Origin: Ignavibacteria bacterium
GTDB lineage: Bacteria > Bacteroidota > Ignavibacteria > Tepidaquicellales > OLB5
Assembly: GCA_030835085.1 (NCBI GenBank)
Contig: JAUQWQ010000158.1
Span: 1,125 to 65,124 of the forward strand
Length of the DNA stretch: 64,000 nt
Reading direction: 5' to 3'
Shown here: positions 12,357 to 44,626 of the stretch, piece after piece
How the letters are laid out: each line of letters begins with the position of its first letter
Position numbering within the stretch: position 1 is the stretch's first letter
Notes under the pieces: model-generated
Databases searched by the model: none
What the model saw: only the letters and a program-made list of their open reading frames with translations
Told to the model about the DNA's origin: nothing
Program-made: the position numbers and the translations under genes

Positions 12357-12381
12357 CATAAAAAAGCCCCGCAAGCGGGGC
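12357..12381 (-). terminator. rho-independent terminator after GWxTD gene
   Basis: GCCCC-GCAAGC-GGGGC hairpin followed on the minus strand by TTTTTT. Confidence 0.75.
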
Positions 12382-12390
12382 TTAAACAAA

Positions 12391-13758
12391 TTACCTGATA
12401 TTAATTTTTTCTTTCCAGTTCTCATCACTGGATTCGTTTTGTGCGGTTGAATGAATCTGGACATAATCCCCGAATCCGGTACTGTTATCCATAAATACAA
12501 AGATCACACCTCCCTGAATTTTGTTGTAGGTCCATATCTCATATGCACGGGTTGAACCTTCATACGGGAACCGTTCAATTTCATCATATTTTCCGTAAAT
12601 CGCATATACTCTTCCCCTGTCAGTTTTCCAGCCCTCTCTCAGATCACTCTTAAAATTCTTGTTCGCATATTCGATCCTTGAATAGTATTCTTTTTTAGTA
12701 AGATATTGCGAGATAGCTTTCCAGTATTTGAACATATACATTCTTTTTTCATCAAGAGCTTTTAAAGATTCATATTTTTCTTTCTGCTGGTCACTCATTA
12801 TATATATAGCTTTATTAAAATCATCATCAACCTGTTTTTCGGTCATTTTTGCATATTCACTCAGCAGGTATTCATTTTCTATATCAGTTAACACCTGGTT
12901 ATTGTAATTCGTATCACTGCTGAAAATATAAAAATACTTATATGCTCTTAAGAGCTCTTTATCATTATTATCAAATAATTTAACAAATAGCTGGTAACTG
13001 TTCGAAGGAAGCCCTGTGATATCTACAGAACCGTATTCAACTTTCGATTCAGATTTAAGGTCATACTTTTTAGTGGATGATTTTATCTCTGACCCGTCCT
13101 TATTAGCAATTGTTATAGTTACTGAATATTTATCCCCCATTTCAAGTTTATTGAGGTTATATAGCTCTAAATAGTAATATAGTTTTGAAAGATTATTCCC
13201 GAATAAATTTCCCGGATTTGGTGTGACTTCCAGGGTATTTTTATAGAAAAGATTATTTTCATCAGTACTCTTAACTATTCCGGTACTGAGCTCAATGGTA
13301 CTCATCATTAGTTTCCCATCCTGAAATGCTTTAAGCTGAACCTCTTCTTCTGCAGAATTTATTTTAGAAGCATCATTAAAATCAGATGCTGTCATTTTCA
13401 GCAGATATGTACCTGAGTCAAGCAGCAGGTTGATCTGACCGGTTAGTTTAAAATCCTTTCCTGAGCCTCCTGTATCTGCTATTGTTACCGGTACTTTAAA
13501 ATCTTTAGCGACAATTGTTTTACCTGAAGTTCTGTTAATAACATCAAGCTGAAGCTTACCGCTTGCTTCATAACCATCTGAATTTTTCATGAACACAAGT
13601 TCTGAAGGCGAAAATGAATAATAAAGCTCAAGGTATACCTTGGTTCCTTCATCCCTGAATATAGCGTAGTCATAATCGAATGATAAATTGGGTTGTGCGA
13701 CTATAACTGATATGTTAAAAATTAATATGAGGAATTTTATTATATATCTTTTAGACAT
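12391..13758 (-). CDS. GWxTD domain-containing secreted protein
   Basis: Signal peptide. C-terminal REGWKTDRGRVYAIYGKYDEIERFP matches the GWxTD motif. Followed by a GC hairpin plus T-run. Confidence 0.75.
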   Translation of the reverse strand: MSKRYIIKFLILIFNISVIVAQPNLSFDYDYAIFRDEGTKVYLELYYSFSPSELVFMKNSDGYEASGKLQLDVINRTSGKTIVAKDFKVPVTIADTGGSGKDFKLTGQINLLLDSGTYLLKMTASDFNDASKINSAEEEVQLKAFQDGKLMMSTIELSTGIVKSTDENNLFYKNTLEVTPNPGNLFGNNLSKLYYYLELYNLNKLEMGDKYSVTITIANKDGSEIKSSTKKYDLKSESKVEYGSVDITGLPSNSYQLFVKLFDNNDKELLRAYKYFYIFSSDTNYNNQVLTDIENEYLLSEYAKMTEKQVDDDFNKAIYIMSDQQKEKYESLKALDEKRMYMFKYWKAISQYLTKKEYYSRIEYANKNFKSDLREGWKTDRGRVYAIYGKYDEIERFPYEGSTRAYEIWTYNKIQGGVIFVFMDNSTGFGDYVQIHSTAQNESSDENWKEKINIR

Positions 13759-13782
13759 AGCATTAAAATATTAGTAACAGAA

Positions 13783-13810
13783 AATGCCATTTACATAAGT
13801 AAATGGCATT
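13783..13810 (-). terminator. intergenic 12-bp hairpin between PorV-like and GWxTD genes (possible terminator/processing site)
   Basis: AATGCCATTTAC-ATAA-GTAAATGGCATT perfect stem. Only a short T-run on either strand. Confidence 0.4.
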
Positions 13811-13841
13811 TTCATTTTTATAAATTTATAATATTAATGAA

Positions 13842-14906
13842 CTAAAAGCCCATTGTGAATGAAAACCACTGATTAGGCTGGAACTTCTCTGTCATTCTGT
13901 ATGAATAATCAAGTCCAAGTTTTACTGTTCCAAAAGGATACTGTAAACCTACACCAAATGAAGGTCCAAAGAGATTCTGGTCTTTTCTTGTTAGACCGTC
14001 TTCAACTTTGTAATCAGGTGTAAATGCATAAGCACCTCTTAAAAATACATAGTTGCTGTAATTATATTCCAAACCAACTCTGTATTCATCGCTTGAAAAG
14101 TTATTATTCTGGAATGTAGTTGAGAACTGTACATTATTTTTCTTACCTATCGGCACATCGTAGGATATCCCTAATTCAAGTGTTGTTGGTAGTGAAAAAT
14201 CCTGTAAAGTTACCCTTCTTGGTTCTGCTGTAGAGCCAGAAGGAGTTCCATACGGCTCGTAATACTGATCGAGCCCGCTTCCATCAAATGTCATAGATGG
14301 TCCGAAGTTCTTTAAAGCAACACCAAACTTCAAACCTGATTTTCCGGCAAGATACTGAAGACCGAAATCTACAGCAAAACCGGTGGATGATACTGTAAGT
14401 ATTTGCTCATAGATTACTTTCACGGTAGCACCAAATAATATCTTATCAGACATTTTTCTTGCATAAGAAATTGATGTTGTAAGATAAGTTGGTGACCATA
14501 CTTCGCCGGTACCCATTGGACTTTCGAGAGTAGTAACAAGCTCATCACCAAAACTCAGTGATTTTAAACTTGCACCTATAACCCCAAGATTACCCATATC
14601 TACAGCACCTGCAACGTAATTTATGTTAATATCTGCAATATACTTCATATGTGAAGCAAGAACTTCCGTCTTATTATTCATAAGTGAAAGACCTGCAGGA
14701 TTCCAGTACATAGCATCTACGCCTGAAATAGAAGAGATCATGGAGCCGCTCAGAGAGGTACCCCTGGATCCTACCGGAATCAATAATTCCGGTGCTGCAG
14801 AAGTACCGTATTTACTACGGTCTCCTGCAAAACTAATGCTACCAAACAGCAGAGTAAATATCAATGCTGATTTAGCAGCGGTTTTTATTTTATGATATAA
14901 TTTCAT
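13842..14906 (-). CDS. PorV/PorQ-family outer-membrane beta-barrel (T9SS-associated, FadL-like)
   Basis: Signal peptide, YGTSAAPELLIPVGSRGTSLSGS...AMYWNPAGLS N-terminal motif, alternating beta-strand pattern and terminal ...FTMGF. Confidence 0.75.
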   Translation of the reverse strand: MKLYHKIKTAAKSALIFTLLFGSISFAGDRSKYGTSAAPELLIPVGSRGTSLSGSMISSISGVDAMYWNPAGLSLMNNKTEVLASHMKYIADININYVAGAVDMGNLGVIGASLKSLSFGDELVTTLESPMGTGEVWSPTYLTTSISYARKMSDKILFGATVKVIYEQILTVSSTGFAVDFGLQYLAGKSGLKFGVALKNFGPSMTFDGSGLDQYYEPYGTPSGSTAEPRRVTLQDFSLPTTLELGISYDVPIGKKNNVQFSTTFQNNNFSSDEYRVGLEYNYSNYVFLRGAYAFTPDYKVEDGLTRKDQNLFGPSFGVGLQYPFGTVKLGLDYSYRMTEKFQPNQWFSFTMGF

Positions 14907-14943
14907 TTTTTTAAGCTCCTTATTGATTTATTTACAATACTGT

Positions 14944-17900
14944 TTAGAACGAGTCAATTCTTTCTTCCGGTGTAAAGATAGCTAACTTGATAGTTTTTGT
15001 ACCTATACCGGGGGCATCGATAAATGCTATATAAATTCCGCTTGCTACCGGAATTCTATCAGTATTTGTCAGATCCCAATTGATCGAGGTTGTATTATCA
15101 TCTTTATTTATCTGTCTTACAAGATTTCCGTTCAATGAATATATGAAAATAGTAGCAGTTTTCGGCATATTCATGAATTTCACAAACCTGTCAAACGGGC
15201 TTGTTTCCTGTGCGTGACCGCCATAATACGGGTTAGGAACAACCCTTACAGTTGACAATTCACCTCTTGTTGTAGCTAATTCAGTACTGCCAATAGTCGG
15301 AGCAGTTGTATTTTGTGTTATTACTTCGGTTATTGTTCCAGGTGATTGCTGATACTGCAATCTTGTATAAGGTATAATCTCAAGAACATCACCATTGTTA
15401 TATGCAGGACCACTGTTAATTAATCTTGGTGTCCAAACATATTGAATATCCATCTGCCTGAAATTGGCAGAGAAACTGATATTCTTTGATGTATAGAATG
15501 AATTTGGATTCGGATCGTATGTTGAATACATAATATAAACATATTCAACTCCACCATCACCGGTTGCTTTTGGATTCCAAGTTCCGCTGCTGTCTCCATC
15601 AAAGAATGCAACATTGACCTGTCTTGGTACTGTTGAGTTTGTATCAAGCGGATCATCAATTTCCACCTTGAATGGAATATCAACATAATCCTGATATGGA
15701 GAATTTGTTACAGCTCCTCTGTACCGGTATGCTTTCTGAGTTGTACCGAAGGTAATTTTTACATTCTTTAAAGCTGATACTTTCAGGAATGCATTGTCAA
15801 TTTTCGAAGTATAATTTCCGCTTCTGTATACATTTCCTGAAGGCCAGCTAAGACCCATTGAAACGCTCTGGGGCGGCAGGTAATTGGCAAATACATTCTT
15901 TAACGCTGTTGTATCTGCTCCTGCTAAATTCAAAGTTCCGCCGGTATAGTTCCAGCCTCTTGATAATGACTGTGTTCCCGGTCCCGGATCTTTGATTACA
16001 CCATAATTCAAGCTGTTGATCGTATCAACCTTGAATAAGATACCATCAGCTAAATATGCACTGTTATCAAGTATTGAACGGTTATACATATTACCTAATA
16101 CTGTATCTACCTGAGCATTTTGTATCCTTACTACTTTCCAAGTAGTATCTGATGACCATACCATTTTATACGTAGCTGATAAGACCTTCATCGGGTCTAT
16201 TATCACAGGAATAAACACCTTATCTGGCCTGTTAATTGAAAGTGTATCAAGTGCTTTGTTAATGAAATTTGTACCCATCATCGGGGTATTTGGTATCACG
16301 TTTAATAACTGTGATGATACCGGATTTTCGAGTACTTTAAACGGTTTTCCTGCATTCAGATTTACACCGTAAGCTGTTATAGCAAATCTATATGATGTAC
16401 CGTTTATGAAGAAATCATTAACACCGGAAGGATAAGCATTTGAAGTTAATGTTATGATCCTTGAAACACCATTATCATTACCAAAAGCTACAGGTTTATA
16501 TTCATCCTGTGTTGTACCGTTTGGCTGGCCAACACGAATTGTATCATAAACTATCTTAATATTATCAACTATGTCATAAGTTGCCACTAATGTTCTGTCA
16601 GATTCATTATCACCTGAAGTTCCCGGTTTTATCTGGTAAACATTATATCCCTGGAATTTCCAGCGACCTGTAAGGCCTAATGAATCATATACATCATAAG
16701 ATTCTGATCTAGAACCCCAATATAATGTTATTTTTGCATCTCCATTTGCAACAACATTTACCTGCGGAGCAGGAGGTAACGGAGTAGCTGCAAAGTTTGA
16801 GTTATAGAACTTCTGTACCCTGGAACCTGCTTCAAGCAGTGCGCATACACTTTGATTATTTGTTGAGCCTCTTTCAATAAAAGCACCAATAACAATTATC
16901 TGTGTATCTAATGATTGCATTACAAACGGGCCGCTTACCTGAAGAAAACGTTTATCTCCAGGAAGACTATCATACCATCCGGTTTTTTGGCAAGCATCAC
17001 CATTGTATTTATATTTCGAAGGTCCCCCTGTTGTCCAGTTAATCAGCGGATTTGCACATCCCTCACCATATTTCATAAAGTTGTATGCGTTAACTGCCTG
17101 ATCAGGGTCACCCAAACATTCATTCTGTCCATTCAAAAATGTCGTAAAAAGTGAAAGACCTACTGATCTGTACCCAACAAGATTACCATAAGGTAATTTA
17201 GCAGTATCATTCGGGTCACCGGTGTAAACAATCGGGCTCTGTAAATATTTGAATCCAACTGCCGGCGGAGCTGAACCGTAATCCGGATCTTCATTATCCT
17301 GATTATAGCAGAAACCGATATCCTGTAGTGAATCGCAACCGACTGCATCATCACCTGAATTACCAAGATCAGGATCGCATGCAATAGCTGTAAATGTACT
17401 GTCCCAAACATCATTACTCTTGTTAATGATCTTCCATTTAACAAAATACATATTTAAAAGACCCGGTGCAAGAAATGCAAACGAAGTCTGCTGAACTTCA
17501 GCACCCATAGGTAAAGTACCTCCGGGTAATGAAAGCTCTGAAAAATGCTGGTTATTTGTACAGTTAGTATAGTCCATGAACACACTCCAGATAATTTCAT
17601 CCGGACGTGCTACGCTGTTACCTATACCCGGTCTGTCACCGTCAAATTCAGGCTGATATCCCGGAACACCGTTTACTTCTACATAAGGTGCGCCAAGATC
17701 AACCGGCCAGCTTGCCCATGAATCATAAACTATAGTGAATGTTCTTCCGCCTGCAATTTTCTGTCTTGTTCCGCCATTAATTAAACTTGGGTCATTTACA
17801 TTAACCTGGTAAGCTTTAAGTCTTGGATCGGAGCATACCTGTGAGCCAGGTACCTGGCCTACTACCGGAATATTACCCGGAGAAAAATGAGTATTGAACA

Positions 17901-18228
17901 TTGAAGCTGCAAGCCTGAGATCTCCGTTTACTTTTGCGCCTATATATATACCGGTCGTAAAAATAGCTGTTAATCTCTGTGATGCTGCAACAGGCCAAAC
18001 CATACCTGCAACAGCGCTTGAAAATGTTATTTTATCATAATTAAAATAACCGTCGCTTCTGAAAATTGCGTTAATATTATTTACCTGCAGAAAGTTATTA
18101 TTAACACCGGCATTCATCCTTACCGGAGTATAACCCTTTCGTTCTTTTGAAATTGTATCATTTACAGGGGCAAAACATATTACCCCTGTAATGATCAACA
18201 TTAATAATTTAAAAGTTATATTTTTCAT
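14944..18228 (-). CDS. large secreted protein of unknown function with divergent T9SS/FlgD-Ig-like C-terminal domain
   Basis: 1094 aa from ATG 18228 (the ORF track starts at GTG 18240). Signal peptide. Cys/Asp-rich N-domain (CDPDLGNSGDDAVGCD...PPAVGFKYL). FN3-like module (ITLYWG...FQGYNVYQ). C-terminal VVPNPYYGG...IFIYSLNGNLV...ASGIYIAFI beta-sandwich. Confidence 0.8.
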   Translation of the reverse strand: MKNITFKLLMLIITGVICFAPVNDTISKERKGYTPVRMNAGVNNNFLQVNNINAIFRSDGYFNYDKITFSSAVAGMVWPVAASQRLTAIFTTGIYIGAKVNGDLRLAASMFNTHFSPGNIPVVGQVPGSQVCSDPRLKAYQVNVNDPSLINGGTRQKIAGGRTFTIVYDSWASWPVDLGAPYVEVNGVPGYQPEFDGDRPGIGNSVARPDEIIWSVFMDYTNCTNNQHFSELSLPGGTLPMGAEVQQTSFAFLAPGLLNMYFVKWKIINKSNDVWDSTFTAIACDPDLGNSGDDAVGCDSLQDIGFCYNQDNEDPDYGSAPPAVGFKYLQSPIVYTGDPNDTAKLPYGNLVGYRSVGLSLFTTFLNGQNECLGDPDQAVNAYNFMKYGEGCANPLINWTTGGPSKYKYNGDACQKTGWYDSLPGDKRFLQVSGPFVMQSLDTQIIVIGAFIERGSTNNQSVCALLEAGSRVQKFYNSNFAATPLPPAPQVNVVANGDAKITLYWGSRSESYDVYDSLGLTGRWKFQGYNVYQIKPGTSGDNESDRTLVATYDIVDNIKIVYDTIRVGQPNGTTQDEYKPVAFGNDNGVSRIITLTSNAYPSGVNDFFINGTSYRFAITAYGVNLNAGKPFKVLENPVSSQLLNVIPNTPMMGTNFINKALDTLSINRPDKVFIPVIIDPMKVLSATYKMVWSSDTTWKVVRIQNAQVDTVLGNMYNRSILDNSAYLADGILFKVDTINSLNYGVIKDPGPGTQSLSRGWNYTGGTLNLAGADTTALKNVFANYLPPQSVSMGLSWPSGNVYRSGNYTSKIDNAFLKVSALKNVKITFGTTQKAYRYRGAVTNSPYQDYVDIPFKVEIDDPLDTNSTVPRQVNVAFFDGDSSGTWNPKATGDGGVEYVYIMYSTYDPNPNSFYTSKNISFSANFRQMDIQYVWTPRLINSGPAYNNGDVLEIIPYTRLQYQQSPGTITEVITQNTTAPTIGSTELATTRGELSTVRVVPNPYYGGHAQETSPFDRFVKFMNMPKTATIFIYSLNGNLVRQINKDDNTTSINWDLTNTDRIPVASGIYIAFIDAPGIGTKTIKLAIFTPEERIDSF

Positions 18229-18248
18229 ATTTATTAACACTCCGATAA

Positions 18249-21191
18249 TTAATTAAAGAATAATCTGAATCCGAGCCTTACCTGCCTTGGCGGACCGTAG
18301 TTATTAATAGCATGTGACCTTATTTTATAAAGTTCTACTGCCTGCGGGCCAACTGTATTTGCCCACTGCCTTCCTGGATAACTATCCAAAAAGCCTGTAT
18401 TACCGGCTTCACCGGAGGTTGCAAATACATCACTGATAAGTTCCTGATCAAGTACATTAATTGCTAAAATGTACAGATTAGCATTCAGTTTATTGAAGAT
18501 TTTGAATGTCTTATCAATTTTGAGGTCAAGTCTTAAATTCCATGGTGAATAAGCTGAATTCAATGGTGCAATTGGAGTATTTCCACCGGGTGACTGAACC
18601 ACCTGAAGAACATCATATGAATTATTTGACGGAGTGTAAGGCCTACCGCTGTTAAAACTAAACAAAGTATTTATTCCTAATCTTGATAAAACACCGCCCC
18701 AGAAACCTTTGGGTACATCTGTTGTTCCCCATCTGTAATCAAGTTCAATTGAACCTGTATGTCTCTGGTCGTAATCCAGTGCTGTTGGAATTTTAGGAGG
18801 TTCATCACCATTATAAGCAATGTTACTCTGTGAATTGATATTTGAACCTGTTCCGGAAGCAAATGACAAGCCATAAGAAATTGAAGCTCTTAGCCTGTTA
18901 ATTCTTCTGAGATCCAGACTGAAATCAATACCTCTTACTATACCAAAGTCACCGTTATCATATATTGCGAAACTATATGAGTTATCCTGAGCTTTTATAT
19001 TTACAGCCTGGATAAGATCTGAAGTCTCTTTATAATAAGCTGTAAGGCCCAAAGTTACATAATCACCTGCTGAGTGTTTTACACCAAGTTCATATGCTGT
19101 TGTTCTTTCAGGTTTCAATAACGGGTTATTGAAAACTGTAAAATATCCTACGCCGCCATCAGCTAAATCTCTGATAACTCTCTGGTTCTCATACAGATTC
19201 TCTAAAGCAGGAAGCTGTATAAATTTACCATATTGTGCATGGAATACTGTTTTATCGGTTATCGGGAATGAAAAACCAAGTCTTGGACTTACTTCAATAG
19301 TTTTTTCAACTGTTTTATAGTCTGCTTCGTTTAAAATTCCGTCTGCGCCTTTTAGGTTTTCATAATCTATAGGTACAAGAGTATTAGGATCCATATAATC
19401 TACCCTGATACCTAAGTTTGTATTAAAATAATCAAACTCCATTTTATCAAGGAAGTAAAAAGCACCGATCCTTGGTTTCTTTGGAGCTTCAGTTACGTTC
19501 AAACCGTTTACAACATAATCTTCTTCTATTTCATTTCCATAAACATCATATCCGTAAGCTTCCATAAAATTGGAATTTGCGCCATTTTCATCAATTACAG
19601 GGTTGTTAATAACATTACCGCTTGTATTGATATACTTATTTGGATTTGGAAGCGAACCAAAACCAATTACGTTGGCATAATAATTCCTTACCTTAAACTG
19701 CTTGTACTCTCCGCCAAATTTCAACTCATGATTACCAAGTTTCTTAGTAAGAAGCTGATGAGTAAAATTCAGATTAAAAGATAAAGCCTGAGTTTTCTGT
19801 TTGTAATAATTACCGCTGACAGTTCCGGGATTTCTGAAAACCCTGAAATTAGCTGCTGATGATACTGTACCGCCCATACCTGAAATTCCGAGAACAGTAT
19901 TTGTATCGCCGTAAGCCAAGATTGAAGGATAAAGGAATCCATCTTCACCAGGTAAGCTCTGGATAAAGTCATCTACAAAAAAGATACCGTCACCTTCTTT
20001 ATATGAACTTTCAAGATAGGATGCCTGAAGATCATAAAAAGTTTTTGAACCGAATAACTGGTTTATTTTTACATAACCCTGCTGGTTATTATGTTTAACC
20101 AAAGGATTATGATATGAATTGAATTTTCCAAATGAACCAAGCCAAGTTCTTGATGTTTCATCATTACCAAAATAACCGCCGGTTAAAGTTAAATTTAACT
20201 TACCTTTTGTCATTTCGCTGATACTGATAATAGTTTTACCTGACCATGACTGACCATTCCTTGAGAAATTAGGAAGAATTCCGTCATCTGCCCATAGTTT
20301 AGCTACATCCTGGCTAACGGGCTGATCTACTAAATTAAAATTCTTTTCGTAACTTCCGAAAATTGACCAGTATTTGCTTAATTTTTTTGTAGGGATTACA
20401 GGTCCGCCTAAGCTTATACTGTAAACATTATAACCCTGTGAAGTTGTATTGATATAATCACCTGCAATCACATCAGAAATAACTTCTACTGAACCTGTAT
20501 AACTTGGAGCGGATTTAGTTGTTACATTGATAACACCGCTGAGTACGTTGCCGTATTCTGCACTGAAACCGCCTGTTAATACAGCCAGTTCCTGCAATGC
20601 ACCATTTGATACATTAGCCGTAGAGCCTCTGTCTAATGGATTATTGGTAACAACACCATCAATTATGATCTGGGTTTCGCCATCTCTGCCGCCCCTGATA
20701 TTGATGTTCTGACCTTTTTCATCCTGAACAACGCCGCTTGTTTTGGCAACAATGTTCTCTATGCCTCTGATACCGGTGTTTTCGATAAACTCAGTATTAA
20801 TGATCTTCCCGCTATTATCTACAACTTTTCTTTTTGCAATAATAATAGTAGTATCTAATACAACACCTCCCTGAGACATTGTAAAATCAATGTTCGCAGT
20901 GATACCAACACTTACACTGATATTTGATTGAATCTGTGCATCATAGCCAACATATGTACACTTTACAGAATATGTACCAACCGGTACATTAAGTATAGCG
21001 TACTGTCCGTTTTCATCTGTACCGCTTCGTAATTGAGTACCCTCAACTTCGACCCTGGCACCGATCAAAAGTTCGCCTTTATCATCTCTCACAACTCCGG
21101 CAATCTTTCCGGTTGTTTGAGAGATAAGGTCAACTGTGGCAATTGTGAAAATAAGAAGAAGGGCTAAGAAGAAATGGTTAAATAGCCTCAT
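18249..21191 (-). CDS. TonB-dependent receptor with N-terminal carboxypeptidase-regulatory-like domain
   Basis: Signal peptide. CarboxypepD_reg-like domain (GKIAGVVRDDKGELLIGARVEV...GTYSVKCTYVGY). Plug (NINIRGGRDGETQIIIDGV...GGFSAEYGN). Beta-barrel of about 700 aa. Confidence 0.85.
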   Translation of the reverse strand: MRLFNHFFLALLLIFTIATVDLISQTTGKIAGVVRDDKGELLIGARVEVEGTQLRSGTDENGQYAILNVPVGTYSVKCTYVGYDAQIQSNISVSVGITANIDFTMSQGGVVLDTTIIIAKRKVVDNSGKIINTEFIENTGIRGIENIVAKTSGVVQDEKGQNINIRGGRDGETQIIIDGVVTNNPLDRGSTANVSNGALQELAVLTGGFSAEYGNVLSGVINVTTKSAPSYTGSVEVISDVIAGDYINTTSQGYNVYSISLGGPVIPTKKLSKYWSIFGSYEKNFNLVDQPVSQDVAKLWADDGILPNFSRNGQSWSGKTIISISEMTKGKLNLTLTGGYFGNDETSRTWLGSFGKFNSYHNPLVKHNNQQGYVKINQLFGSKTFYDLQASYLESSYKEGDGIFFVDDFIQSLPGEDGFLYPSILAYGDTNTVLGISGMGGTVSSAANFRVFRNPGTVSGNYYKQKTQALSFNLNFTHQLLTKKLGNHELKFGGEYKQFKVRNYYANVIGFGSLPNPNKYINTSGNVINNPVIDENGANSNFMEAYGYDVYGNEIEEDYVVNGLNVTEAPKKPRIGAFYFLDKMEFDYFNTNLGIRVDYMDPNTLVPIDYENLKGADGILNEADYKTVEKTIEVSPRLGFSFPITDKTVFHAQYGKFIQLPALENLYENQRVIRDLADGGVGYFTVFNNPLLKPERTTAYELGVKHSAGDYVTLGLTAYYKETSDLIQAVNIKAQDNSYSFAIYDNGDFGIVRGIDFSLDLRRINRLRASISYGLSFASGTGSNINSQSNIAYNGDEPPKIPTALDYDQRHTGSIELDYRWGTTDVPKGFWGGVLSRLGINTLFSFNSGRPYTPSNNSYDVLQVVQSPGGNTPIAPLNSAYSPWNLRLDLKIDKTFKIFNKLNANLYILAINVLDQELISDVFATSGEAGNTGFLDSYPGRQWANTVGPQAVELYKIRSHAINNYGPPRQVRLGFRLFFN

Positions 21192-21215
21192 TTATATTAC
21201 CTCCGATTTGTTATT

Positions 21216-21258
21216 CAAAAAAAACCCTGCCCATTATCATTCAATAACAGGACAGGGC
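21216..21258 (-). terminator. rho-independent terminator after 21274-23178, upstream of the TBDR operon
   Basis: CCCTG(T)CC...GG(G)CAGGG stem followed on the minus strand by T8. Confidence 0.7.
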
Positions 21259-21273
21259 TTTTTAAAAAATTTA

Positions 21274-23178
21274 TTATTTTACTAAAATCATTTTTTTAGT
21301 TTCTGAAAAATCTCCGGATGTTAATGTATAGAAATAAATTCCGCTTGCATATGAAGATGCATTGAAACTGATTTCATTAATACCGGCTGTTGCTAATTCA
21401 TTTTTAGCTAAAGTTTTTACAAGTCTGCCTGTTACATCAAATATTTCGAGTGTAACATTTGAATTTTTGGGAACTGAGAACCTGATCGTTGTACTTGGAT
21501 TGAATGGATTCGGGAAATTCTGTGATAGTGCGAATCTTTCCGGAATTTCATTCGATACATTGATAATACCGATAGGTGTAGTTACCTTCTTGAAGCTCTG
21601 ATATACAATAGCTGAAGGCGAAAGGTCAGTAAATACCTGTGCGCCAGGCTCTCTTGTACTCATATATGTAACATAAGCTGCATTATTTGTATTATTCTGA
21701 GCTGCTACAACCGGGTAAACTTCATCCCAGTTTGGCGTATTTGTTACATTTACCGGATTTGAATTCCATGTAGCACCGCCATCAAGTGACCAGCTTAAAT
21801 ATATATCATGGAAGTTCCAGTTCTGACCAACAACTGATGTTGCAGTATCAGGCTGAACAACTGAGTATGTACAGTACATAACACTTCCGTCAGCTGAAAA
21901 GCCGATAGCGGGATGACCAAAGATAGCTTCATTAACACCAAACATAAGCCTGGTGCCGTTTGACCTTAACATCTTACCCCAGTTATTGGTATCAGCCATA
22001 AAGCCAATTTTTGTCCAGTCAGCAACTACAACCGGATTTCCGCTGTTAACTGCAGGACTCCATAAAATAACCTTCCATGGTCTTCTCTGGTCAGCGAGTG
22101 ATACGTATGTTGTTGTATAATCAAATGTTGCAAAGCATACATACGGATTTGTTGTATTTTTCTTATAAATAGCATCAACGTGCCAGTATGGCTGCAATGA
22201 ATCGCCATTTAAGAAACCGTTACCTAAAATTTTCTGTGAAGCAGGCCAGGTAACGCCGCCATCTGTTGAAGTTGAATATCTGACTGATCTAAAAGGATCG
22301 CCGCCGCTTGTGGGTTCATTTACATAACTCCATGCAGCTGTAAGCTGATTAGCATTGCTGCTTGCTCCAATTGTATATGCCTGGACTGTATTTGAAAGTT
22401 CTCTTGTTTCAACGACCTTCAAAGGAGTAAAAGTACCTGCCGGCGGATCAAATTCTGTGAAGAATAAAGTATCTCTTATTAATGAAGTGCTTGATACACG
22501 CTGTAAAAAACAGCCTAACTTTCCGTTTGATTTTAAAGCTGAAAACAGATCTGTACCGGTAGTTAAACCAAGCGGAAGCAGGTTAACCGTTATACTTCCT
22601 GCACCTAATAATACATCATATCCAACACCGGGAGTTCTAACTGTTGAATTAAGCGGTTCCTGGTAATATCTTCCTGATGTAGCAATTGTTCTGTTTCCTG
22701 CTATTGTGAGCAAGCTTGCATCGGGATATCTTGATTTCTGGTTGTTTGACATGTCATTTGCGCCTGTCCATGTTAAACCGCCGTCTAAACTAACGTTATA
22801 TCTGATTTTCATTGAAGTACCTGCATTTGAATTAGGTATTTCAAGAGAATCAAGATATACTGCTGCAACAATAACTGTATCCCCGCTTACCAGTATCTGG
22901 CTTAAAGAATTACCGTTTGTTGCGTAATCATTAAATCCGGATAACCCGGGTACACTATCTGCGGGAGGTGGAGGCATAACCATATCTTTCTGATTATTTG
23001 CCACGAGATTTACATGCGGTGTATTCCCGTCACTCTCTATAGTTCTTTCAATAATTGTGTTATAATTCAAAGATTTTGTCAGCTTATCGTTTCTCCAGCC
23101 TTTATCTACGTAATTACTCGCAACAAAAGCTAAAGTTACACAAGCAAGAATGACAAAAAATGTAATTTTAATTCTCAT
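21274..23178 (-). CDS. BNR/Asp-box beta-propeller protein with T9SS type-A C-terminal domain
   Basis: Signal peptide, SLDGGLTW / STDGGVTW / SLDGGATW Asp-boxes, and C-terminal SQNFPNPFNPST...GIYFYTL...KKMILVK-stop. Confidence 0.85.
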   Translation of the reverse strand: MRIKITFFVILACVTLAFVASNYVDKGWRNDKLTKSLNYNTIIERTIESDGNTPHVNLVANNQKDMVMPPPPADSVPGLSGFNDYATNGNSLSQILVSGDTVIVAAVYLDSLEIPNSNAGTSMKIRYNVSLDGGLTWTGANDMSNNQKSRYPDASLLTIAGNRTIATSGRYYQEPLNSTVRTPGVGYDVLLGAGSITVNLLPLGLTTGTDLFSALKSNGKLGCFLQRVSSTSLIRDTLFFTEFDPPAGTFTPLKVVETRELSNTVQAYTIGASSNANQLTAAWSYVNEPTSGGDPFRSVRYSTSTDGGVTWPASQKILGNGFLNGDSLQPYWHVDAIYKKNTTNPYVCFATFDYTTTYVSLADQRRPWKVILWSPAVNSGNPVVVADWTKIGFMADTNNWGKMLRSNGTRLMFGVNEAIFGHPAIGFSADGSVMYCTYSVVQPDTATSVVGQNWNFHDIYLSWSLDGGATWNSNPVNVTNTPNWDEVYPVVAAQNNTNNAAYVTYMSTREPGAQVFTDLSPSAIVYQSFKKVTTPIGIINVSNEIPERFALSQNFPNPFNPSTTIRFSVPKNSNVTLEIFDVTGRLVKTLAKNELATAGINEISFNASSYASGIYFYTLTSGDFSETKKMILVK

Positions 23179-23516: not shown

Positions 23517-25343
23517 CTATTTAACCAGGATCATTTTCTTTGTATCAGTAAAATCACCTGCTTTAATCTTATAGATATAAATACCGCTTGGTAAATTCTC
23601 TGCATTAAATTCCATTGATTTTACACCTGCAGTCTGCACATCATTTACTAATGTAGCAACTTCGCGGCCTAAAACATCATAGACTTTTAATGATACGAAT
23701 CCGGCTTTTACCAGGTTATATTCAATCTTTGTAACCGGGTTAAATGGATTCGGATAATTCTGTGCAAGATGGTAATCTTTCAGAATGTTCTGATTATTAC
23801 CAATACCAATTGGATTTGTTCCGGTAAGTTTCCTGAATATCAACTGATTTCTGGAAGGAGCAGCAAGTGTTCCGTTACCGTTAAATGAAGCAGGTCCAAC
23901 ACCAGGATCCTTCATATAAACAAGGTTCAATTCATAGTTTCCGCCCGATGTACCGGGATTCCATAAAGAAACCGACGGATATGTTTCATCTATTGTCGGG
24001 GTATTTGTTAATCTTACCGGGGTTGACCAGGTTGTTCCATCATTTAATGAATACTGAATGTAGAGATCTCTCTGGTTAAAACCGCCGTTTGATGTATCTG
24101 ATTTCACAACGCTATATACGCAATATAGAGTACTGCCATCAGCTGACCAGCCAAGAGCAGGGAAATCTATTGTAAATACGAAAGCAAGTGATTGTGACAT
24201 TGTTGTTGCTCCGCCAACATCAGCAACTGTGCAAATAGTTGTATGAGTTCCGTCACTTTTTGTTAACTGCAGCTTTCCGTTTGCAAAAAGATTATCAGTA
24301 GTTATAGGATAAGCAAGATACCAGTTATTAGTGTTCTTTTTGTATACAAAGAAAGAACCTCCGGCAGTAGCAACTGTATCCTGTCCGCCATTTACAGTAT
24401 ATGGAGCAAATGCGGTGTTAACAGGACCCCATGTGGTGCCGTTATTTGTTGATGTAATTTCGAATATTTTACTGTTTTCAAGTGTATCATTTTCATTAAC
24501 CGGGGCAATGATAACTGTTACTCTTCCCTGGTTATTGTTGGCAATATGATATCGTGCATTACTTCCAACTGTGCCGATAAAGTTCATACCACTGATCCAC
24601 AACGGAGTTCTGTCGCTCATTTGAGTTCCGCCGGTATATACTGAATAATACAAAGTTTCGGGAGGAACTGTTGAACTTACATTTCTTCTTGAAATTAAAC
24701 CAACATTACCATTATTATAAACGGAGATCTGAGGCCATATTCCAAAAGGTCTTGTTGTTGGATTCGGATGCGAATATTCATTGAAAGTTGCTGCTAAAGG
24801 AGCAACATCAATATATAAGTTTGCATCAAGCCTGTTGCCTGCATTAGTACTGTGATTTGAGATCACTGCAGCACCATCTTTTAACTGAAGAACTCCGAAA
24901 CCGGATCTGACATTAGGAACATCAACGCTTAATTCCCAAGTTAAACCACCATTAGTTGAAAATGAATATTTTGTTCTTCTGGTTGTTGCACCTGCCTGAT
25001 CAAGAGAATCTGACTGGACATCAATTACATGAATATTAAGCGGGTTCAGAGCATCAACCTGTATATACTCATTAGTTTCACCATTAGTCTTAAAATCATA
25101 GAATCCTGAAATTCCTGTAAATACTTCAGGTCCTACAAGAATACTGTCTGTTGCAAATCCCTGTGCCAAAGGAGCGGTAAATACAATAGATTGCGGTGCA
25201 ATATTGTATGGAATAAAACTCACATTGGAACCGTCCATTTGAGAAACATTTCTGTTGAGCCTTGTCTGGTTTCTATCACCTGATGAAACCTGGAAGGACA
25301 CAAATAAAAGTAGTAAAAAAATAACTGAAGCTTTTGCTCTCAT
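23517..25343 (-). CDS. BNR/Asp-box beta-propeller protein with T9SS type-A CTD (paralog of 21274-23178)
   Basis: STNGGLTW, STNNGTTW and SLNDGTTW. Block LYCVYSVVKSDT...SLNDGTTWSTPVRLTNTPTIDETYP is collinear with the neighbouring gene. CTD AQNYPNPFNPVT...KKMILVK-stop. Confidence 0.85.
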   Translation of the reverse strand: MRAKASVIFLLLLFVSFQVSSGDRNQTRLNRNVSQMDGSNVSFIPYNIAPQSIVFTAPLAQGFATDSILVGPEVFTGISGFYDFKTNGETNEYIQVDALNPLNIHVIDVQSDSLDQAGATTRRTKYSFSTNGGLTWELSVDVPNVRSGFGVLQLKDGAAVISNHSTNAGNRLDANLYIDVAPLAATFNEYSHPNPTTRPFGIWPQISVYNNGNVGLISRRNVSSTVPPETLYYSVYTGGTQMSDRTPLWISGMNFIGTVGSNARYHIANNNQGRVTVIIAPVNENDTLENSKIFEITSTNNGTTWGPVNTAFAPYTVNGGQDTVATAGGSFFVYKKNTNNWYLAYPITTDNLFANGKLQLTKSDGTHTTICTVADVGGATTMSQSLAFVFTIDFPALGWSADGSTLYCVYSVVKSDTSNGGFNQRDLYIQYSLNDGTTWSTPVRLTNTPTIDETYPSVSLWNPGTSGGNYELNLVYMKDPGVGPASFNGNGTLAAPSRNQLIFRKLTGTNPIGIGNNQNILKDYHLAQNYPNPFNPVTKIEYNLVKAGFVSLKVYDVLGREVATLVNDVQTAGVKSMEFNAENLPSGIYIYKIKAGDFTDTKKMILVK

Positions 25344-25368: not shown

Positions 25369-28203
25369 TTACTTTATTAAAATCATTTTTTTAACTGATG
25401 TAAAATAACTCGATTCAAGTTTGTAAAAATAAATTCCGCTTGCAAGATTGGTACCGTTAAAATCGTATTTATATTCACCAGGAGTTAATAAACTGCTGAA
25501 ACTTGCAGTTTCTCTCCCGATTATATCATAAATTTTCAATTTAACTATATCGGTCTTTGCAATATCAAACTTAATAGTAGTAACAGGGTTGAACGGATTT
25601 GGATAATTCTGATAAAGCTCAAATTTTTCCGGAATAATGCTTGAAATCGGCTCAATTCCAATTACATTAAATCTGTTCTTGGCTGCATTATTGTTAGTTC
25701 TTAATTCATTAAGATCGTTGCCCTTTACAACGGCAAATCCGACAACTATGCTGTCATTGTTATTCAGGTTATATGGTCCCCCTGATATAACAAAACAGTT
25801 GGCACCGGGTCCAATGTTCCCGTTCACAATACCATTGCTCATTGCATCCCATTTTTCCTGGGTTGTAAAACCGGTTAAAACTTCTGCAGCATTTAATGCT
25901 TTAAAATTGAGATTTTGAGATGACAGCAAACTTACCCCAAGATATGGGTTAGTAGTTGTATTATTATAGGTATAACCTATTTTATTCAGTGTATCAAGCG
26001 CAGAAATCGCTCCTCCATTAATACCATTCGGGGTAAAATATAAATATATACCTGAAAAAATATTTGAAAGCGGTCCGCCGCTTGTATTTTTAATTGTATA
26101 CCGCAGAATAATGTAGTTAGCGTCTGGTGCACTGTTCCATGCAAAACTTTCAGATCTTACAGTAACACCGATCTTATTCACTCCCGCGCCGTTATCATTG
26201 AAATAACCTTTTCCGTCTTCATTCGAAAAAACTCCGGGCATCTGAAGAGTATATGGATTGATCGCAGTAAAATCTGTATCAGATATATTAATCGGTGAAC
26301 TTCCCCTTCTGCAATCATCTGATACTTTTGTATTGCTTATACCAATCATCAAACCGCCTTCAAGCATCTGGTTTCCGGTATATCCCGGGATATTCAGTCC
26401 ATTACCATATGCCTGGGTTTTCTTTCCAACAGCACCGTCTTTTGTTAAAGAAAGTTTCATATTGTTAACAGAATGTGTTGCCCAGCCCTGTCTGAATGTA
26501 ACAGTAAAGGTTGCTGTTGCACCGTCATGATATGCGTTTGCAGAAGTTCTTAAATTAAATGTCACAACTTTATCGTATGGACAGGAAGGTTTTGCTTTAA
26601 CCCTGAAAGTGTTTGATGGCTGGGTACTGTATGAAGTATATGCGTTAAGATTCCCGACATAAACAGAATCCTGAACGATTTCTACATCCGGGTCAGCAGT
26701 AGTGAGCCTTAATGAAACGTTATTGCCGGCAATCCAAATATTCCTGTAATCAATTGCAAAAGTAACAACTTCGTTTATATCAAAAGCTTTATCATTGTTT
26801 CCGTATAATGAATCGCTGGCAGTTTTTGAGATCAATGAAATGATCGGGAAATCCGCTACGCATTTAAAAGCATTAACTCTTCCCGTTCCTAATAGTCCAA
26901 TATATGCCGGATTCAAATGATATATACTGTCAACACCAAGCTTCAGCCTGTCAACTACCTGTGCATTTGTCCAAGAAGGATACTTTGACCTTATCAAGCC
27001 AACAACACCGGCAGTAACCGGCGATGACATTGATGTACCGTTAAAAACTGCATATGAATTATCATATACTGTACTTAAAATTCCTTCTCCGGGTGCAATT
27101 ACGTCAACTGTAGTATGATAATTGGAAAAACTGGCTTTTAAATCAGCGGAATTTGACGCTGCAACATTTACAACATTATCGTAAGAAGCCGGGTATCTGG
27201 GAGTATTTAAACCATCATTACCGGCTGAAGCAACTATAACAACTCCTGCTGCCCATGCATCGTTTATAATATTTTGAGTACCTGCACTGAAGGTAGAACT
27301 TCCAAAGCTGCAATTGATGACTTTAGCACCGTTTTGGTACAAGTAAACAATACCGCTGTTCGAATTGTAAATATTGTTATCGGGAACATCGGGAGCATGT
27401 TTGCTGATACGCAGCTTGCATTTAAATCCCGGTCCGGCACCATGAACATTATTATTTGCTACCTGTGAAGCACAGCCTGATACATGCGAGCCGTGATCAC
27501 TTCCGCCTAAAATATTCGGGTCATTATCATAATAATAAAAATCCCATCCTTTGAAGTCATCAATATAACCGTTACCGTCATTATCAACTCCGTCAACAGG
27601 ATCAGCGTAATTATACCTGATATTTGCACCAAGATCCGGATGGTCAAGATCGCTTCCGCTATCTACTATTCCAATAACAACATTTGTATCACCCTGGGTT
27701 ATATCCCACGCCTGGAATGAATTTATCTTGCTTATATGATACTGCTGCGGGATCGAAGGGTCATTTGGTACGAATAATGCTTCATAAACAAATTCGGGCT
27801 CAGCCCATTCAAGAATATCTTTGTTTTTTTCAAAAATTTCTGCAGATAGATCGGTAGGGTCGATATTTCCATCGTATTTAATAGTAAAAAATCTCGCAAG
27901 ATCTTCGTCACCGTTCATTCTTAATTTCACATCTTTTTTCAATGGAAAAGGAGGGTAAACACTTTTTACATCATATTGTGAAATTATATTATCAATAGAG
28001 CCAAATCCAGTGGTAAAACGTGTATAAATTTCATTGTGGGTTTTAAATTTAATATTAATCATTCCCGGCTGATACTTTGCACCATCCTGGACCCTTAATA
28101 TTACTCTTTCACTTATCCTTTTGTATTTAACTTCAGGATTATCCGTGAAACTAAAAAAGGCTAAAAAAACGGGCATTAAAAAAAATAGGAATATTTTTTT
28201 CAT
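25369..28203 (-). CDS. subtilisin-family (S8) serine peptidase with T9SS type-A CTD
   Basis: Catalytic triad contexts GIVDSGSDLDHPDL (D), HGSHVSGCAS (H) and NGTSMSSPVTAG (S). Long beta-rich C-terminal region. CTD YQNYPNPFNPVT...KKMILIK-stop. Confidence 0.9.
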   Translation of the reverse strand: MKKIFLFFLMPVFLAFFSFTDNPEVKYKRISERVILRVQDGAKYQPGMINIKFKTHNEIYTRFTTGFGSIDNIISQYDVKSVYPPFPLKKDVKLRMNGDEDLARFFTIKYDGNIDPTDLSAEIFEKNKDILEWAEPEFVYEALFVPNDPSIPQQYHISKINSFQAWDITQGDTNVVIGIVDSGSDLDHPDLGANIRYNYADPVDGVDNDGNGYIDDFKGWDFYYYDNDPNILGGSDHGSHVSGCASQVANNNVHGAGPGFKCKLRISKHAPDVPDNNIYNSNSGIVYLYQNGAKVINCSFGSSTFSAGTQNIINDAWAAGVVIVASAGNDGLNTPRYPASYDNVVNVAASNSADLKASFSNYHTTVDVIAPGEGILSTVYDNSYAVFNGTSMSSPVTAGVVGLIRSKYPSWTNAQVVDRLKLGVDSIYHLNPAYIGLLGTGRVNAFKCVADFPIISLISKTASDSLYGNNDKAFDINEVVTFAIDYRNIWIAGNNVSLRLTTADPDVEIVQDSVYVGNLNAYTSYSTQPSNTFRVKAKPSCPYDKVVTFNLRTSANAYHDGATATFTVTFRQGWATHSVNNMKLSLTKDGAVGKKTQAYGNGLNIPGYTGNQMLEGGLMIGISNTKVSDDCRRGSSPINISDTDFTAINPYTLQMPGVFSNEDGKGYFNDNGAGVNKIGVTVRSESFAWNSAPDANYIILRYTIKNTSGGPLSNIFSGIYLYFTPNGINGGAISALDTLNKIGYTYNNTTTNPYLGVSLLSSQNLNFKALNAAEVLTGFTTQEKWDAMSNGIVNGNIGPGANCFVISGGPYNLNNNDSIVVGFAVVKGNDLNELRTNNNAAKNRFNVIGIEPISSIIPEKFELYQNYPNPFNPVTTIKFDIAKTDIVKLKIYDIIGRETASFSSLLTPGEYKYDFNGTNLASGIYFYKLESSYFTSVKKMILIK

Positions 28204-32351: not shown

Positions 32352-33626
32352 TTATAGACCCTTTAAGCCTATATCTGTTCTGTTATACTTATTTTCAAAA
32401 TTAATAATTTCAGCATTATGATAAGCAATGTTTATAGCTTCCTTTAAACCCAGCGGAGAAATTCCGGTAACATTCAAAACCCTGCCTCCGTTAGATAATA
32501 TTTTTCCATCAGCGGACTTTGTACCCGCATGAAAAACCACAGCATTATTGCTAATTTCATTCAAGCCTGTAATTTCCTTCCCTGTATCATACTTATCCGG
32601 ATACCCTGTAGAGGCCAGCACCACGGTACAGCAAAAATTACTGTTCAGTTTCAGTTCATACTTGCCTATGCTCCCCTTTGCCGATGCAACGAACATATCA
32701 GCAATATCGCTGTTTATCAAAGGCATTACAACCTGCGTTTCAGGGTCACCGAAACGAGTATTAAATTCAATAACATACGGGTTACCGGTTTTATCGATCA
32801 TCAGGCCGCAATATAAACATCCTTTAAACTCATTTCCTTCACTTTTCATATGTTTTAAAACCGGCTCAATGACTTTTTGCTTTATTTTATCCAAAATTTC
32901 ACGGCTAACTGCTTTATCAGCCGGCGCGTATGCGCCCATACCGCCAGTATTCTTGCCGGTTTCATCATCACCAATTTTTTTATGATCCTGCGAAGCCGGC
33001 AGTACTATATAATCCGTGCCATCACAAATCGCAAATACAGATGCTTCAACTCCTTCCAGGAATTGTTCTATGACAATGTTCTCACCTGCAGAGCCGAAGA
33101 TCTTATCATCAAACAATTCATTAACTGTCTTAATTGCCTCATCAATATTATTGCAAATTATAACACCTTTGCCTGCTGCAAGTCCATCAGCTTTTATAAC
33201 AAGCGGGTACTTAGCCTCACTGATAAAATCAAATACCTTTGCTTTATCGTTTAAGCTGAATGTTTCATATGCCGCAGTTGGGATATTATTGCGCTTCATA
33301 AAATCCTTGGCGAAGATCTTGCTGTGCTCAAGTCTTGCGGCGCTTTTTTGCGGACCGAAAATCAACAGTCCTTCTTTTGTGAACTCATCAACTATACCCT
33401 TTTCCAAAGGCACTTCGGGTCCAACTACGGTAAGCTCAATTCTATTATCTTTAACAAACTTCAGTAATCCTTCAATATCATCAGCTTTGATATCTAAACC
33501 AACCGCAATTTCATTTATGCCGGCATTGCCGGGTGCGCAGTATATTTCTGTGACTTTCGGACTCTGTTTCAGCTTCCATACTATTGCATGTTCTCTTCCC
33601 CCGGAACCTATTACAAGTACTTTCAT
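32352..33626 (-). CDS. purD: phosphoribosylamine--glycine ligase
   Basis: MKVLVIGSGGREHAIVWKL N-terminus, ATP-grasp core and EFNTRFGDPETQ; 424 aa. Confidence 0.93.
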   Translation of the reverse strand: MKVLVIGSGGREHAIVWKLKQSPKVTEIYCAPGNAGINEIAVGLDIKADDIEGLLKFVKDNRIELTVVGPEVPLEKGIVDEFTKEGLLIFGPQKSAARLEHSKIFAKDFMKRNNIPTAAYETFSLNDKAKVFDFISEAKYPLVIKADGLAAGKGVIICNNIDEAIKTVNELFDDKIFGSAGENIVIEQFLEGVEASVFAICDGTDYIVLPASQDHKKIGDDETGKNTGGMGAYAPADKAVSREILDKIKQKVIEPVLKHMKSEGNEFKGCLYCGLMIDKTGNPYVIEFNTRFGDPETQVVMPLINSDIADMFVASAKGSIGKYELKLNSNFCCTVVLASTGYPDKYDTGKEITGLNEISNNAVVFHAGTKSADGKILSNGGRVLNVTGISPLGLKEAINIAYHNAEIINFENKYNRTDIGLKGL

Positions 33627-34909: not shown

Positions 34910-35060
34910 ATATTATCTTATTGCATGTGAAAAACACCTGCAATGGGGTTTATTTTATAAAAAAACCGCATTTTTGAGTAATTTCAAAGTTAATTAAAAT
35001 TAGGGTTTCATTCAATTTACAAAGAAATGCACTTAAATAGACTGACGGTATCTATAGATA

Positions 35061-35087
35061 AAGGCGGCCTTTTGTGGCCGCCTTTTA
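35061..35087 (+). terminator. orphan GC-rich hairpin + T-run with no upstream CDS
   Basis: AAGGCGGCC-TTTTGT-GGCCGCCTT-TT. No ORF on either strand ends nearby. Confidence 0.5.
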
Positions 35088-41857: not shown

Positions 41858-41881
41858 GAATTACGAATTTTCTAATACATA

Positions 41882-44473: not shown

Positions 44474-44487
44474 ATTTGTTAATTCCC

Positions 44488-44531: not shown

Positions 44532-44626
44532 ATTGATTTTACGAAAGTAATGTATTATTTTAGTATATTACATTTCAAGCTATTGATTTAATAAGCATTT
44601 TTTCTTTCAATTTATCTTACATCACA

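Follow-up and report, generated by a model that had tools for sequence, protein, structure and literature searches.

Gene organization of the locus

The DNA considered here, referred to below as the window, is a stretch of 64,000 nucleotides (nt) from an Ignavibacteria bacterium (contig JAUQWQ010000158.1). We focus on three consecutive genes on its minus strand that together may equip a nutrient importer with a partner at the surface without recourse to lipoproteins. The first, at 18249-21191, encodes a TonB-dependent receptor (TBDR) of 980 amino acids (aa), assigned from the open reading frame (ORF) call and its Pfam domains. The second encodes a large protein that we call MID, for the middle protein of the triad, and the third, at 13842-14906, encodes an outer-membrane barrel of the PorV/PorQ family (354 aa), assigned by the NF033709 model and by a structural match. 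The names L004–L164 denote loci from scanned genomes and metagenomes. A preliminary description of this DNA had given the same co-directional order, with gaps of 20 nt (18229-18248) and 37 nt (14907-14943), and both values are reproduced here. It had also described the middle protein as secreted, without a recognizable family and with a C-terminal domain like those of type IX secretion systems (T9SS), all of which stands, whereas its length of 1095 aa is corrected here to 1094 aa. The MID ORF covers 14944-18240 on the minus strand, and the ATG at 18228, with GGAG 11 nt upstream, is most likely the start, giving a gene at 14944-18228 for a protein with a signal peptide and an all-beta structure.

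The receptor consists of a signal peptide, a CarboxypepD_reg extension (aa 30-114), a plug (aa 127-218) and a large barrel, with Pfam scores of 62 bits (CarboxypepD_reg, PF13620), 34.6 bits (Plug, PF07715) and 98.6 bits (TonB_dep_Rec barrel, PF00593), in line with how the gene was first described. This makeup is the Oar-type architecture as defined in PMC6434023, and PF25183 scores 28.5 bits, slightly under its cut-off of 30. Membership of the SusC/RagA family was considered and ruled out: TIGR04056 gives 35.2 bits, where its cut-off is 368, and the match is confined to the N-terminal part, positions 2-216. Between extension and plug lies a TonB-box-like motif, DTTIIIA (within DTTIIIAKRK), and a TonB-box-like consensus V.IVA.RP is common to 60 triad receptors together with an IRGG plug motif; the final residue is F or Y in 48 of these 60. 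As far as sequence can tell, the conserved plug and TonB-box-like motif argue for gated transport.

Conservation of the module

One genome per GTDB species was scanned for MID, which gave at least 598 loci; the best 80 were analysed, with their ORFs scored against the proteins of the window. The linkage of the three families proves to be both tight and ancient. A TBDR gene lies directly upstream of MID in 63 of the 75 loci where this could be judged and a PorV-like gene directly downstream in 68 of 80, and the full order of TBDR, MID and PorV-like gene is found in 59 of 71 judgeable loci from some ten phyla of the Fibrobacterota–Chlorobiota–Bacteroidota (FCB) group, with gaps of a few to tens of nucleotides. 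An order that recurs so often and in so many phyla is thus more than chance. The lineages include Ignavibacteriota, Melioribacter, Kryptonia, Rhodothermales, Eisenbacteria and Chlorobi-type metagenome-assembled genomes (MAGs), and further Zixibacteria, Latescibacteria, Marinimicrobia/Fidelibacterota, Calditrichota, KSB1 and Handelsmanbacteria. Distant MID homologs show the same trio in one MAG each of Marinimicrobia, Eisenbacteria and Bacteroidota, the Bacteroidota MAG carrying a tandem second copy. The three-gene adjacency is therefore strongly kept, starting with Ignavibacteria and reaching Marinimicrobia, Eisenbacteria, Zixibacteria, Latescibacteria, Calditrichota and KSB1. The pairwise distances within the three protein families correlate strongly (r = 0.74-0.87; 0 of 2000 permutations reach these values), most tightly for receptor and MID (r = 0.87), a pattern of sequence divergence consistent with inheritance as a unit.

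Multiple or tandem triads occur at L004, L035 and L087, and three loci lie within one Melioribacter MAG; such multi-copy arrangements are typical of uptake families. Complete tandem triads are seen at L004 (4863-12646 and 13933-19552), L035 (1-15422) and L087 (1474-14448); those of L004 are parted by a gene for a Trans_reg_C-type regulator, and the arrays resemble the tandem expansion of uptake loci. Another arrangement is found in Melioribacter, Neomarinimicrobiota and KSB1 MAGs, where two or three tandem MID-like genes (L057 5767-13567, L078 2896-9708, L084 5749-9703) encode shorter proteins of ~870 aa and have no receptor or PorV-like gene within 6 kb.

The proteins flanking the triads, 102 in number, fall into 99 Pfam families and are otherwise unrelated housekeeping neighbours; the triad is thus a self-contained module. 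Only DUF4397 (5 of 102) and DUF6029 (4 of 102) recur more than three times beside triads, which may reflect chance or minor accessory genes. A context like that of a polysaccharide utilization locus was looked for and not found, the 102 flanking proteins including neither carbohydrate-active enzymes (CAZymes) nor regulators.

The middle protein

In Pfam and NCBIfam, MID has no family match above cut-off, and its only hits are sub-threshold ones to T9SS sorting domains. A Sec signal peptide is present. The possibility that MID is a lipoprotein was rejected, a lipobox-like motif occurring in just 2 of 60 homologs; with a signal peptide and no lipobox in the other 58, the protein thus needs an anchor other than a lipid. 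The absence of a SusD-like gene after the receptor, pointed out at the outset, is borne out as well, for MID is all-beta, has no lipobox and gives no match to SusD. A search through 5.8 billion proteins found 273 relatives in Ignavibacteria, Marinimicrobia, Zixibacteria, Eisenbacteria and Bacteroidota MAGs; where these proteins bear a name, it is "T9SS type A sorting domain-containing". When a profile built from 60 relatives was run against 1.84 billion representatives clustered at 50% identity, the family extended to 6,492 clusters at E≤1e-30, mainly full-length proteins of 1000-1150 aa, and to 12,043 clusters at E≤1e-10.

The AlphaFold2 (AF2) model of MID (predicted local distance difference test, pLDDT, 83.5) is all-beta and shows, after the signal peptide, a large N-terminal sandwich (D1), an FN3-like domain, two further sandwiches and a seven-strand C-terminal domain. 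D1 forms a conserved beta-supersandwich head (aa 41-480; 16789-18108, minus strand). The middle region (15274-16770, minus strand) comprises the FN3-like domain (aa 487-650), which matches FN3 arrays in Foldseek, and two variable beta-sandwiches (aa 655-985). The C-terminal domain, a seven-strand sandwich, occupies aa 994-1094 (14947-15249, minus strand). Among homologs of less than 40% identity, 14% of the columns of the C-terminal domain, the best-conserved part, are at least 90% conserved, compared with 13% in D1 and ~1% in aa 655-985; the middle region is probably a stalk or a specificity region. D1 contains an invariant acidic cluster, which includes DPDLGNSGDDAVGCD…YN…D…PPAVG, and the invariant positions are D219, D285, D287, D294, Y308, N309, D314, D425 and R427. 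Over the whole of MID, invariant columns are occupied by Asp, Gly, Pro, Tyr, Asn, Arg, Trp, Phe and Ala; Cys and His are missing from these and from the ≥90% conserved columns of the 60 homologs.

These features raise the question of whether MID could be a surface enzyme, anchored by the barrel and cleaving, for example, a glycan or another polymer at the D1 acidic cluster, whose fragments the receptor then imports; MID would then be more than a passive binding lid. Invariant residues in and around D1 comprise six Asp, one Arg, one Asn and two Tyr, the supersandwich fold accompanies many glycoside hydrolases and phosphorylases, and a conserved head on a variable stalk is what one sees in anchored enzymes. 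However, the domains that Foldseek matches to D1 with probability 1.0 belong to GH94 and GH116 enzymes, in which they are the non-catalytic N-terminal supersandwich, no catalytic family is matched by sequence, and the acidic cluster might just as well be a structural Ca2+ site. We thus regard an enzymatic role as unlikely.

The PorV-like barrel

The barrel scores 171.6 bits with the PorV/PorQ family model NF033709 (cut-off 90), covering aa 35-352 of 354, and 39 bits with the Pfam PorV model (cut-off 27), while PorP_SprF is marginal at 13.9 bits (cut-off 22.3). It reaches none of the equivalog models, with 56.9 bits for PorV (NF033710, cut-off 250), 85 for PorQ (NF033711, 220) and 85.5 for PorV2 (NF052325, 325). 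On these scores, the barrel is a separate subfamily of the PorV/PorQ family and not an equivalog of PorV, PorQ or PorV2. Its AF2 model (pLDDT 81) has the PorV of F. johnsoniae as its best Foldseek match (8gl6_F, E = 3e-15, template-modelling score (TM) 0.67), with 6h3i_F next. FadL and TodX rank behind (E ~1e-8, TM ~0.5), and the FadL-like barrels of the Bacteroidota beta-barrel assembly machinery (BAM) complexes (9hjm_F, 9n2d_B) lower still. Among the conserved loops of the barrel are ESPxGTGE and KNLGPSMKFDG. The family placement first read from the motif GTSAA…VGSRG…MYWNPAGLS, which is indeed found in the third gene, is thus upheld by both the NF033709 score and a structure that matches PorV best. 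Of 920 relatives of the barrel, those that carry a name are called "PorV/PorQ family protein".

A gene for a CTD protein (one with a C-terminal sorting domain) of ~1100 aa with a PorV-family gene behind it resembles the porU-porV arrangement, and one may ask whether MID and the barrel are simply the housekeeping T9SS attachment pair of this lineage, a divergent PorU-PorV or PorZ-PorQ, with the receptor a mere neighbour. The only sequences in the Protein Data Bank touched by the MID family profile are the retained C-terminal domains of PorU (6za2, E = 0.24) and PorZ (E = 0.63), neither of them significant, and PorZ is the top Foldseek match of MID (5m11, E = 3.5e-7). Nevertheless, the PorZ fold, with its two beta-propeller domains, was dismissed: the latter match has a TM of 0.10-0.14 and a root-mean-square deviation of 25 Å, and hence no common fold. 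A porU-porV pair, the alternative foreseen in the preliminary description, was rejected as well. MID has no Peptidase_C25 or NF033707 (PorU) match in Pfam/NCBIfam at E≤0.1 and no invariant Cys or His in its 60 homologs, and the module is multi-copy; genomes with several triads, paralogous or in tandem, do not suggest a single-copy machine part. Furthermore, the barrel stays under the PorV, PorQ and PorV2 cut-offs, and the receptor gene is kept next to MID in 63 of 75 judgeable loci. An attachment pair is therefore highly improbable.

Barrels of this general kind can also hold surface proteins for purposes other than transport, as FadL/PorV-like barrels do in the BAM of Bacteroidota, where BamG binds BamH (PMC12578637). 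The triad could accordingly serve a structural or envelope role, in a surface layer, as an adhesin or in outer-membrane organization, with the receptor-like barrel anchoring or signalling and no import taking place. Housekeeping neighbourhoods without catabolic genes or regulators and the very wide spread of the module within these phyla would suit such a role. On the other hand, the plug and TonB-box-like motif, conserved family-wide, argue for gated transport, multiple divergent paralogs per genome suit different substrates more than one structure, and the BAM-associated barrels 9hjm_F and 9n2d_B match worse than PorV 8gl6_F. We consider a purely structural role, too, to be unlikely.

The C-terminal sorting domain

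The C-terminal domain of MID scores 14.7 bits with PF18962 (cut-off 27) and 18.6 bits with TIGR04183 (cut-off 23), compared with 36-49 bits for the T9SS sorting domains of seven other cargo proteins encoded in the window; NCBI gives the type A sorting-domain name to a few MID homologs. Aligned with these seven canonical domains, the MID domain has the same seven-strand fold and, like them, the motifs PNP, ASG-I-Y and K-x-A-x-F. Two segments set it apart. The first is an insertion of ~10 aa after the first strand (aa ~1000-1015), absent from the seven canonical domains. The second is a conserved tail of 8-9 aa, TPEERIDSF, beyond the last strand, at which the canonical domains end with …KKM.L.K; the tail ends in F or Y in 52 of 60 members. 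Sequence comparison thus makes the MID domain clearly homologous to the T9SS type A sorting domain, of which it would form a distinct subclass. Both segments are highly conserved yet have a pLDDT below 50 in the monomer model, which we take to suggest folding on partner binding. Family-specific segments that are conserved in this way fit a stable interface more than a disposable signal. The F/Y tail was also considered as an outer-membrane beta-signal and this was set aside, ER[IL]Dx[FY] lacking the alternating hydrophobic pattern.

The departure of this domain from the canonical type, with scores under the cut-offs of the T9SS models, leads to a different view of how MID reaches the surface, in which the Oar-type receptor exports it outward with TonB energy and the PorV-like barrel then anchors it, independently of SprA. 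The receptor has the exact Oar architecture, with PF25183 near its cut-off, and its co-divergence with MID is the tightest of the three pairs; moreover, the Oar of Myxococcus is needed for secretion of the protease PopC and requires its TonB box (PMC6434023). Against this, type A sorting domains of the same genome are clear homologs of the C-terminal domain of MID, the top structural match of the barrel is a PorV from the SprA translocon complex, and all loci seen are from FCB lineages. In Bacteroidetes, importers most commonly have the Oar architecture themselves (PMC6434023), and a folded multidomain protein of ~1000 aa fits a plugged 22-strand barrel poorly. Export through the receptor is in our estimate distinctly unlikely. 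Still lower, at the level of a very unlikely scheme, we place the triad as an autonomous display machine, in which TonB would drive MID export and a PorV paralog would capture the modified sorting domain and keep MID on the cell; such a secretion route would use parts borrowed from the T9SS while bypassing the SprA translocon.

Transcription unit and the GWxTD gene

The triad had been described as one transcription unit bracketed by a terminator and a hairpin, and this stands in part. The upstream terminator at 21216-21258 (minus strand) is real: its stem folds at -23.7 kcal/mol (z = -4.5), is followed by U8 and serves as the intrinsic terminator of the T9SS cargo gene at 21274-23178. The downstream hairpin, by contrast, is not the 12-bp structure at 13783-13810 reported before; it computes as 15 bp at 13780-13813 (-22 kcal/mol, z = -5.8), is AT-rich and sits between the barrel gene and a gene for a GWxTD-domain secreted protein (12391-13758, minus strand, 455 aa; PF20094 52 bits, TIGR04514 73.9 bits). 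There is no U-tract on the coding strand and the hairpin is thus unlikely to be a full transcription stop. The GWxTD gene starts 22 nt past the hairpin and is followed by a GC-rich intrinsic terminator at 12364-12383 (minus strand; an 8-bp stem with 6 GC pairs, then U6). Taken together, these features indicate that the unit is probably larger than was described and contains four genes, spanning 12391-21191 and ending at ~12364, with the GWxTD gene included.

The TBDR start codon lies ~24 nt beyond the upstream terminator, and no sigma-70-like promoter was found in the 82-nt spacer upstream of the TBDR gene (21192-21273). Both intergenic hairpins (in 21192-21273 and 13759-13841) are only 22-24 nt ahead of the next start codon, which leaves a promoter no space; either there is read-through from upstream genes, or promoters overlap both hairpins.

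In 16 of 61 triad loci, the barrel gene is directly followed by a GWxTD gene, and conversely a PorV-like gene lies directly upstream in 20 of 44 GWxTD-centred metagenome loci. With about a quarter of the modules carrying it as an accessory, the GWxTD protein is often the fourth member. GWxTD genes that follow a PorV-like gene, at times as tandem pairs, are seen at L005-L011, L022, L033, L040, L051, L055-L064, L069, L079 and L087-L164. A sequence search of the GWxTD domain against solved structures gave no significant relatives, and full-text literature searches found no description of GWxTD proteins.

Proposed role of the module

We tentatively favour, at somewhat less than an even chance, a reading in which the T9SS exports MID, a dedicated PorV paralog holds it through its uncleaved sorting domain, and MID serves the adjacent TonB importer; the function of the triad is read here from gene order and homology. 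Four steps can be envisaged. First of all, Sec would carry MID, which has the signal peptide for it, across the inner membrane. Second, its specialized, type A-derived C-terminal domain would route it through the T9SS translocon, as the homology of the domain suggests. Third, the cognate PorV-like barrel encoded next to it would receive and keep the uncleaved domain and so become a permanent membrane anchor, on the model of PorV for PorU and PorQ for PorZ. Such an arrangement has precedents, since PorU-PorV, PorZ-PorQ and type B cargo with PorP/SprF are established cases of cargo held on a cognate barrel; cognate PorV-like barrels hold uncleaved sorting domains, and cargo and carrier genes cluster (PMC10202324). 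Finally, the conserved head of MID would act together with the receptor, as a surface co-receptor, a lid or a processing partner for the imported substrate. In Proteobacteria, Slam/type 11 secretion loci likewise bring together the genes of a receptor, its co-receptor at the surface and a barrel dedicated to display (PMC8406197).

Several points weigh against this reading. First of all, the MID sorting domain is under the curated cut-offs of both T9SS models, and its dependence on the T9SS is thus assumed from homology and from the FCB-only distribution; seven canonical cargo proteins are encoded in the window and all MID loci viewed belong to FCB lineages. Second, the head is the most conserved part ahead of a variable stalk, which is unexpected if paralogs differ in ligand via the head. 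Third, the co-divergence of the three proteins can also mirror shared species history. Fourth, ~17% of judgeable loci miss a partner, and some of them are tandem MID genes alone (L057, L078, L084). Finally, CAZymes, peptidases, regulators and TonB-ExbBD genes are absent among the triad flanks, which offer no clue to the substrate.

The notion of a dedicated cargo/barrel pair coupled to a TBDR, put forward in the preliminary description, fits the family, structural and synteny data, and we grade the interpretation as a whole as partly supported. Each of the three outcomes that the preliminary description had named as fatal to the idea, a PorU-like middle protein, a barrel outside the PorV/PorQ models and an unconserved adjacency, came out the other way. 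The accompanying notion of a SusD/SusC analogue holds as a likeness of function only, MID being an all-beta non-lipoprotein and the receptor failing the SusC/RagA model. The suggestion that the system had no known description agrees with our full-text literature searches, which found none for the gene trio or for the MID family.

TonB-dependent transporters of Bacteroidia and Proteobacteria depend on surface lipoproteins (SusD, BtuG, TbpB). For FCB bacteria outside Bacteroidia, the module would do what these lipoproteins do for receptors elsewhere. It occurs very commonly in the phyla concerned, among them Ignavibacteriota, Marinimicrobia, Zixibacteria, Latescibacteria, Calditrichota, Eisenbacteria and KSB1. 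If the proposal is true, PorV paralogs can be permanent anchors of transporter partners, the role of the T9SS widens beyond secretion and gliding to the assembly of import machines, and thousands of "hypothetical proteins" in environmental genomes gain a handle.

Other features of the window

The seven canonical T9SS type A cargo genes (36-49 bits) lie at 21274-23178, 23517-25343 and 25369-28203 on the minus strand, these three directly upstream of the triad, and at 44627-46351, 50975-53431, 58734-61439 and 61604-63580 on the plus strand. Their products, which end in …KKM.L.K, include an S8 subtilase, BNR/sortilin-type proteins and an FG-GAP/ASPIC protein. The genome is rich in T9SS cargo, and the organism leans heavily on T9SS secretion. 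A surface-polysaccharide cluster, interleaved with one T9SS cargo gene, extends over 33626-34909 and 40496-49747 and encodes GT4 glycosyltransferases, a YfhO-like membrane protein, a Wzx-type flippase and methyltransferases. The ~870 nt at 34910-35786, flanked by the genes for a glycosyltransferase and a small secreted protein, contain no convincing ORF; Rfam and tRNA scans of the whole window, this interval included, found no RNA genes.

Comparison with known systems

The individual parts of the module, namely a TonB-dependent transporter, a T9SS-type cargo, a PorV-family barrel and anchoring by a cognate barrel, are already known. What is new is a cargo/barrel pair conserved with a TonB-dependent receptor, a distinct sorting-domain subclass and a very large uncharacterized cargo family. 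We thus focus here on how the triad resembles and differs from described systems.

First of all, SusC/SusD and RagA/RagB also have a gene for a CarboxypepD_reg-type receptor directly before that of the presumed surface partner, and many paralogs per genome. The triad receptor, on the other hand, fails the SusC/RagA model (35 against 368 bits), and while SusD is an alpha-helical TPR lipoprotein, MID is an all-beta protein of 1094 aa with a sorting domain. Furthermore, the triad has an obligatory third gene, that of the PorV-like barrel, and its locus is without CAZyme or regulator genes. Second, PorU-PorV and PorZ-PorQ would share with the triad, as read here, an uncleaved type A-like C-terminal domain held by a PorV-family barrel (PMC10202324), and porU-porV shares the order, the gene for a large CTD protein and then that for the barrel. 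MID differs in having no C25 domain, Cys/His dyad or PorZ fold, and the barrel in being no equivalog; the triad, moreover, is multi-copy and tied to a TonB-dependent receptor. Third, type B CTD cargo with PorP/SprF, as in SprB-SprF, is alike in its adjacent cargo and carrier genes and, on the proposed reading, in a C-terminal domain that is probably retained and a carrier that anchors (PMC10202324). The MID domain, however, is type A-derived, the barrel belongs to the PorV/PorQ family (PorP_SprF 13.9 against 22.3 bits), and a link to a receptor is undescribed for type B systems.

Outside the T9SS, the Slam/type 11 loci with TbpB offer a similar clustering of receptor, surface co-receptor and display barrel (PMC8406197). 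The families are unrelated (a DUF560 barrel and a lipoprotein cargo with TbpB_B_D) and occur in other phyla, and the Slam barrel is thought to translocate its cargo itself and not to take it from another translocon. Oar/PopC of Myxococcus xanthus resembles the triad in receptor architecture and in a TonB transporter that is functionally linked to a secreted protein (PMC6434023), whereas popC is not beside oar and PopC lacks a T9SS-type domain, nor does a PorV-like barrel take part. In BamG-BamH, a 14-strand FadL/PorV-like barrel binds a surface-exposed protein via its extracellular loops (PMC12578637); BamG, however, is part of BAM and packs on BamA, while the triad barrel matches PorV much better than the BAM barrels and lies in a receptor operon. 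Judged by analogy, the functional parallels nearest to the triad would be SusCD and, in Proteobacteria, the clusters that combine a receptor with a TbpB-type co-receptor and a Slam/type 11 barrel.

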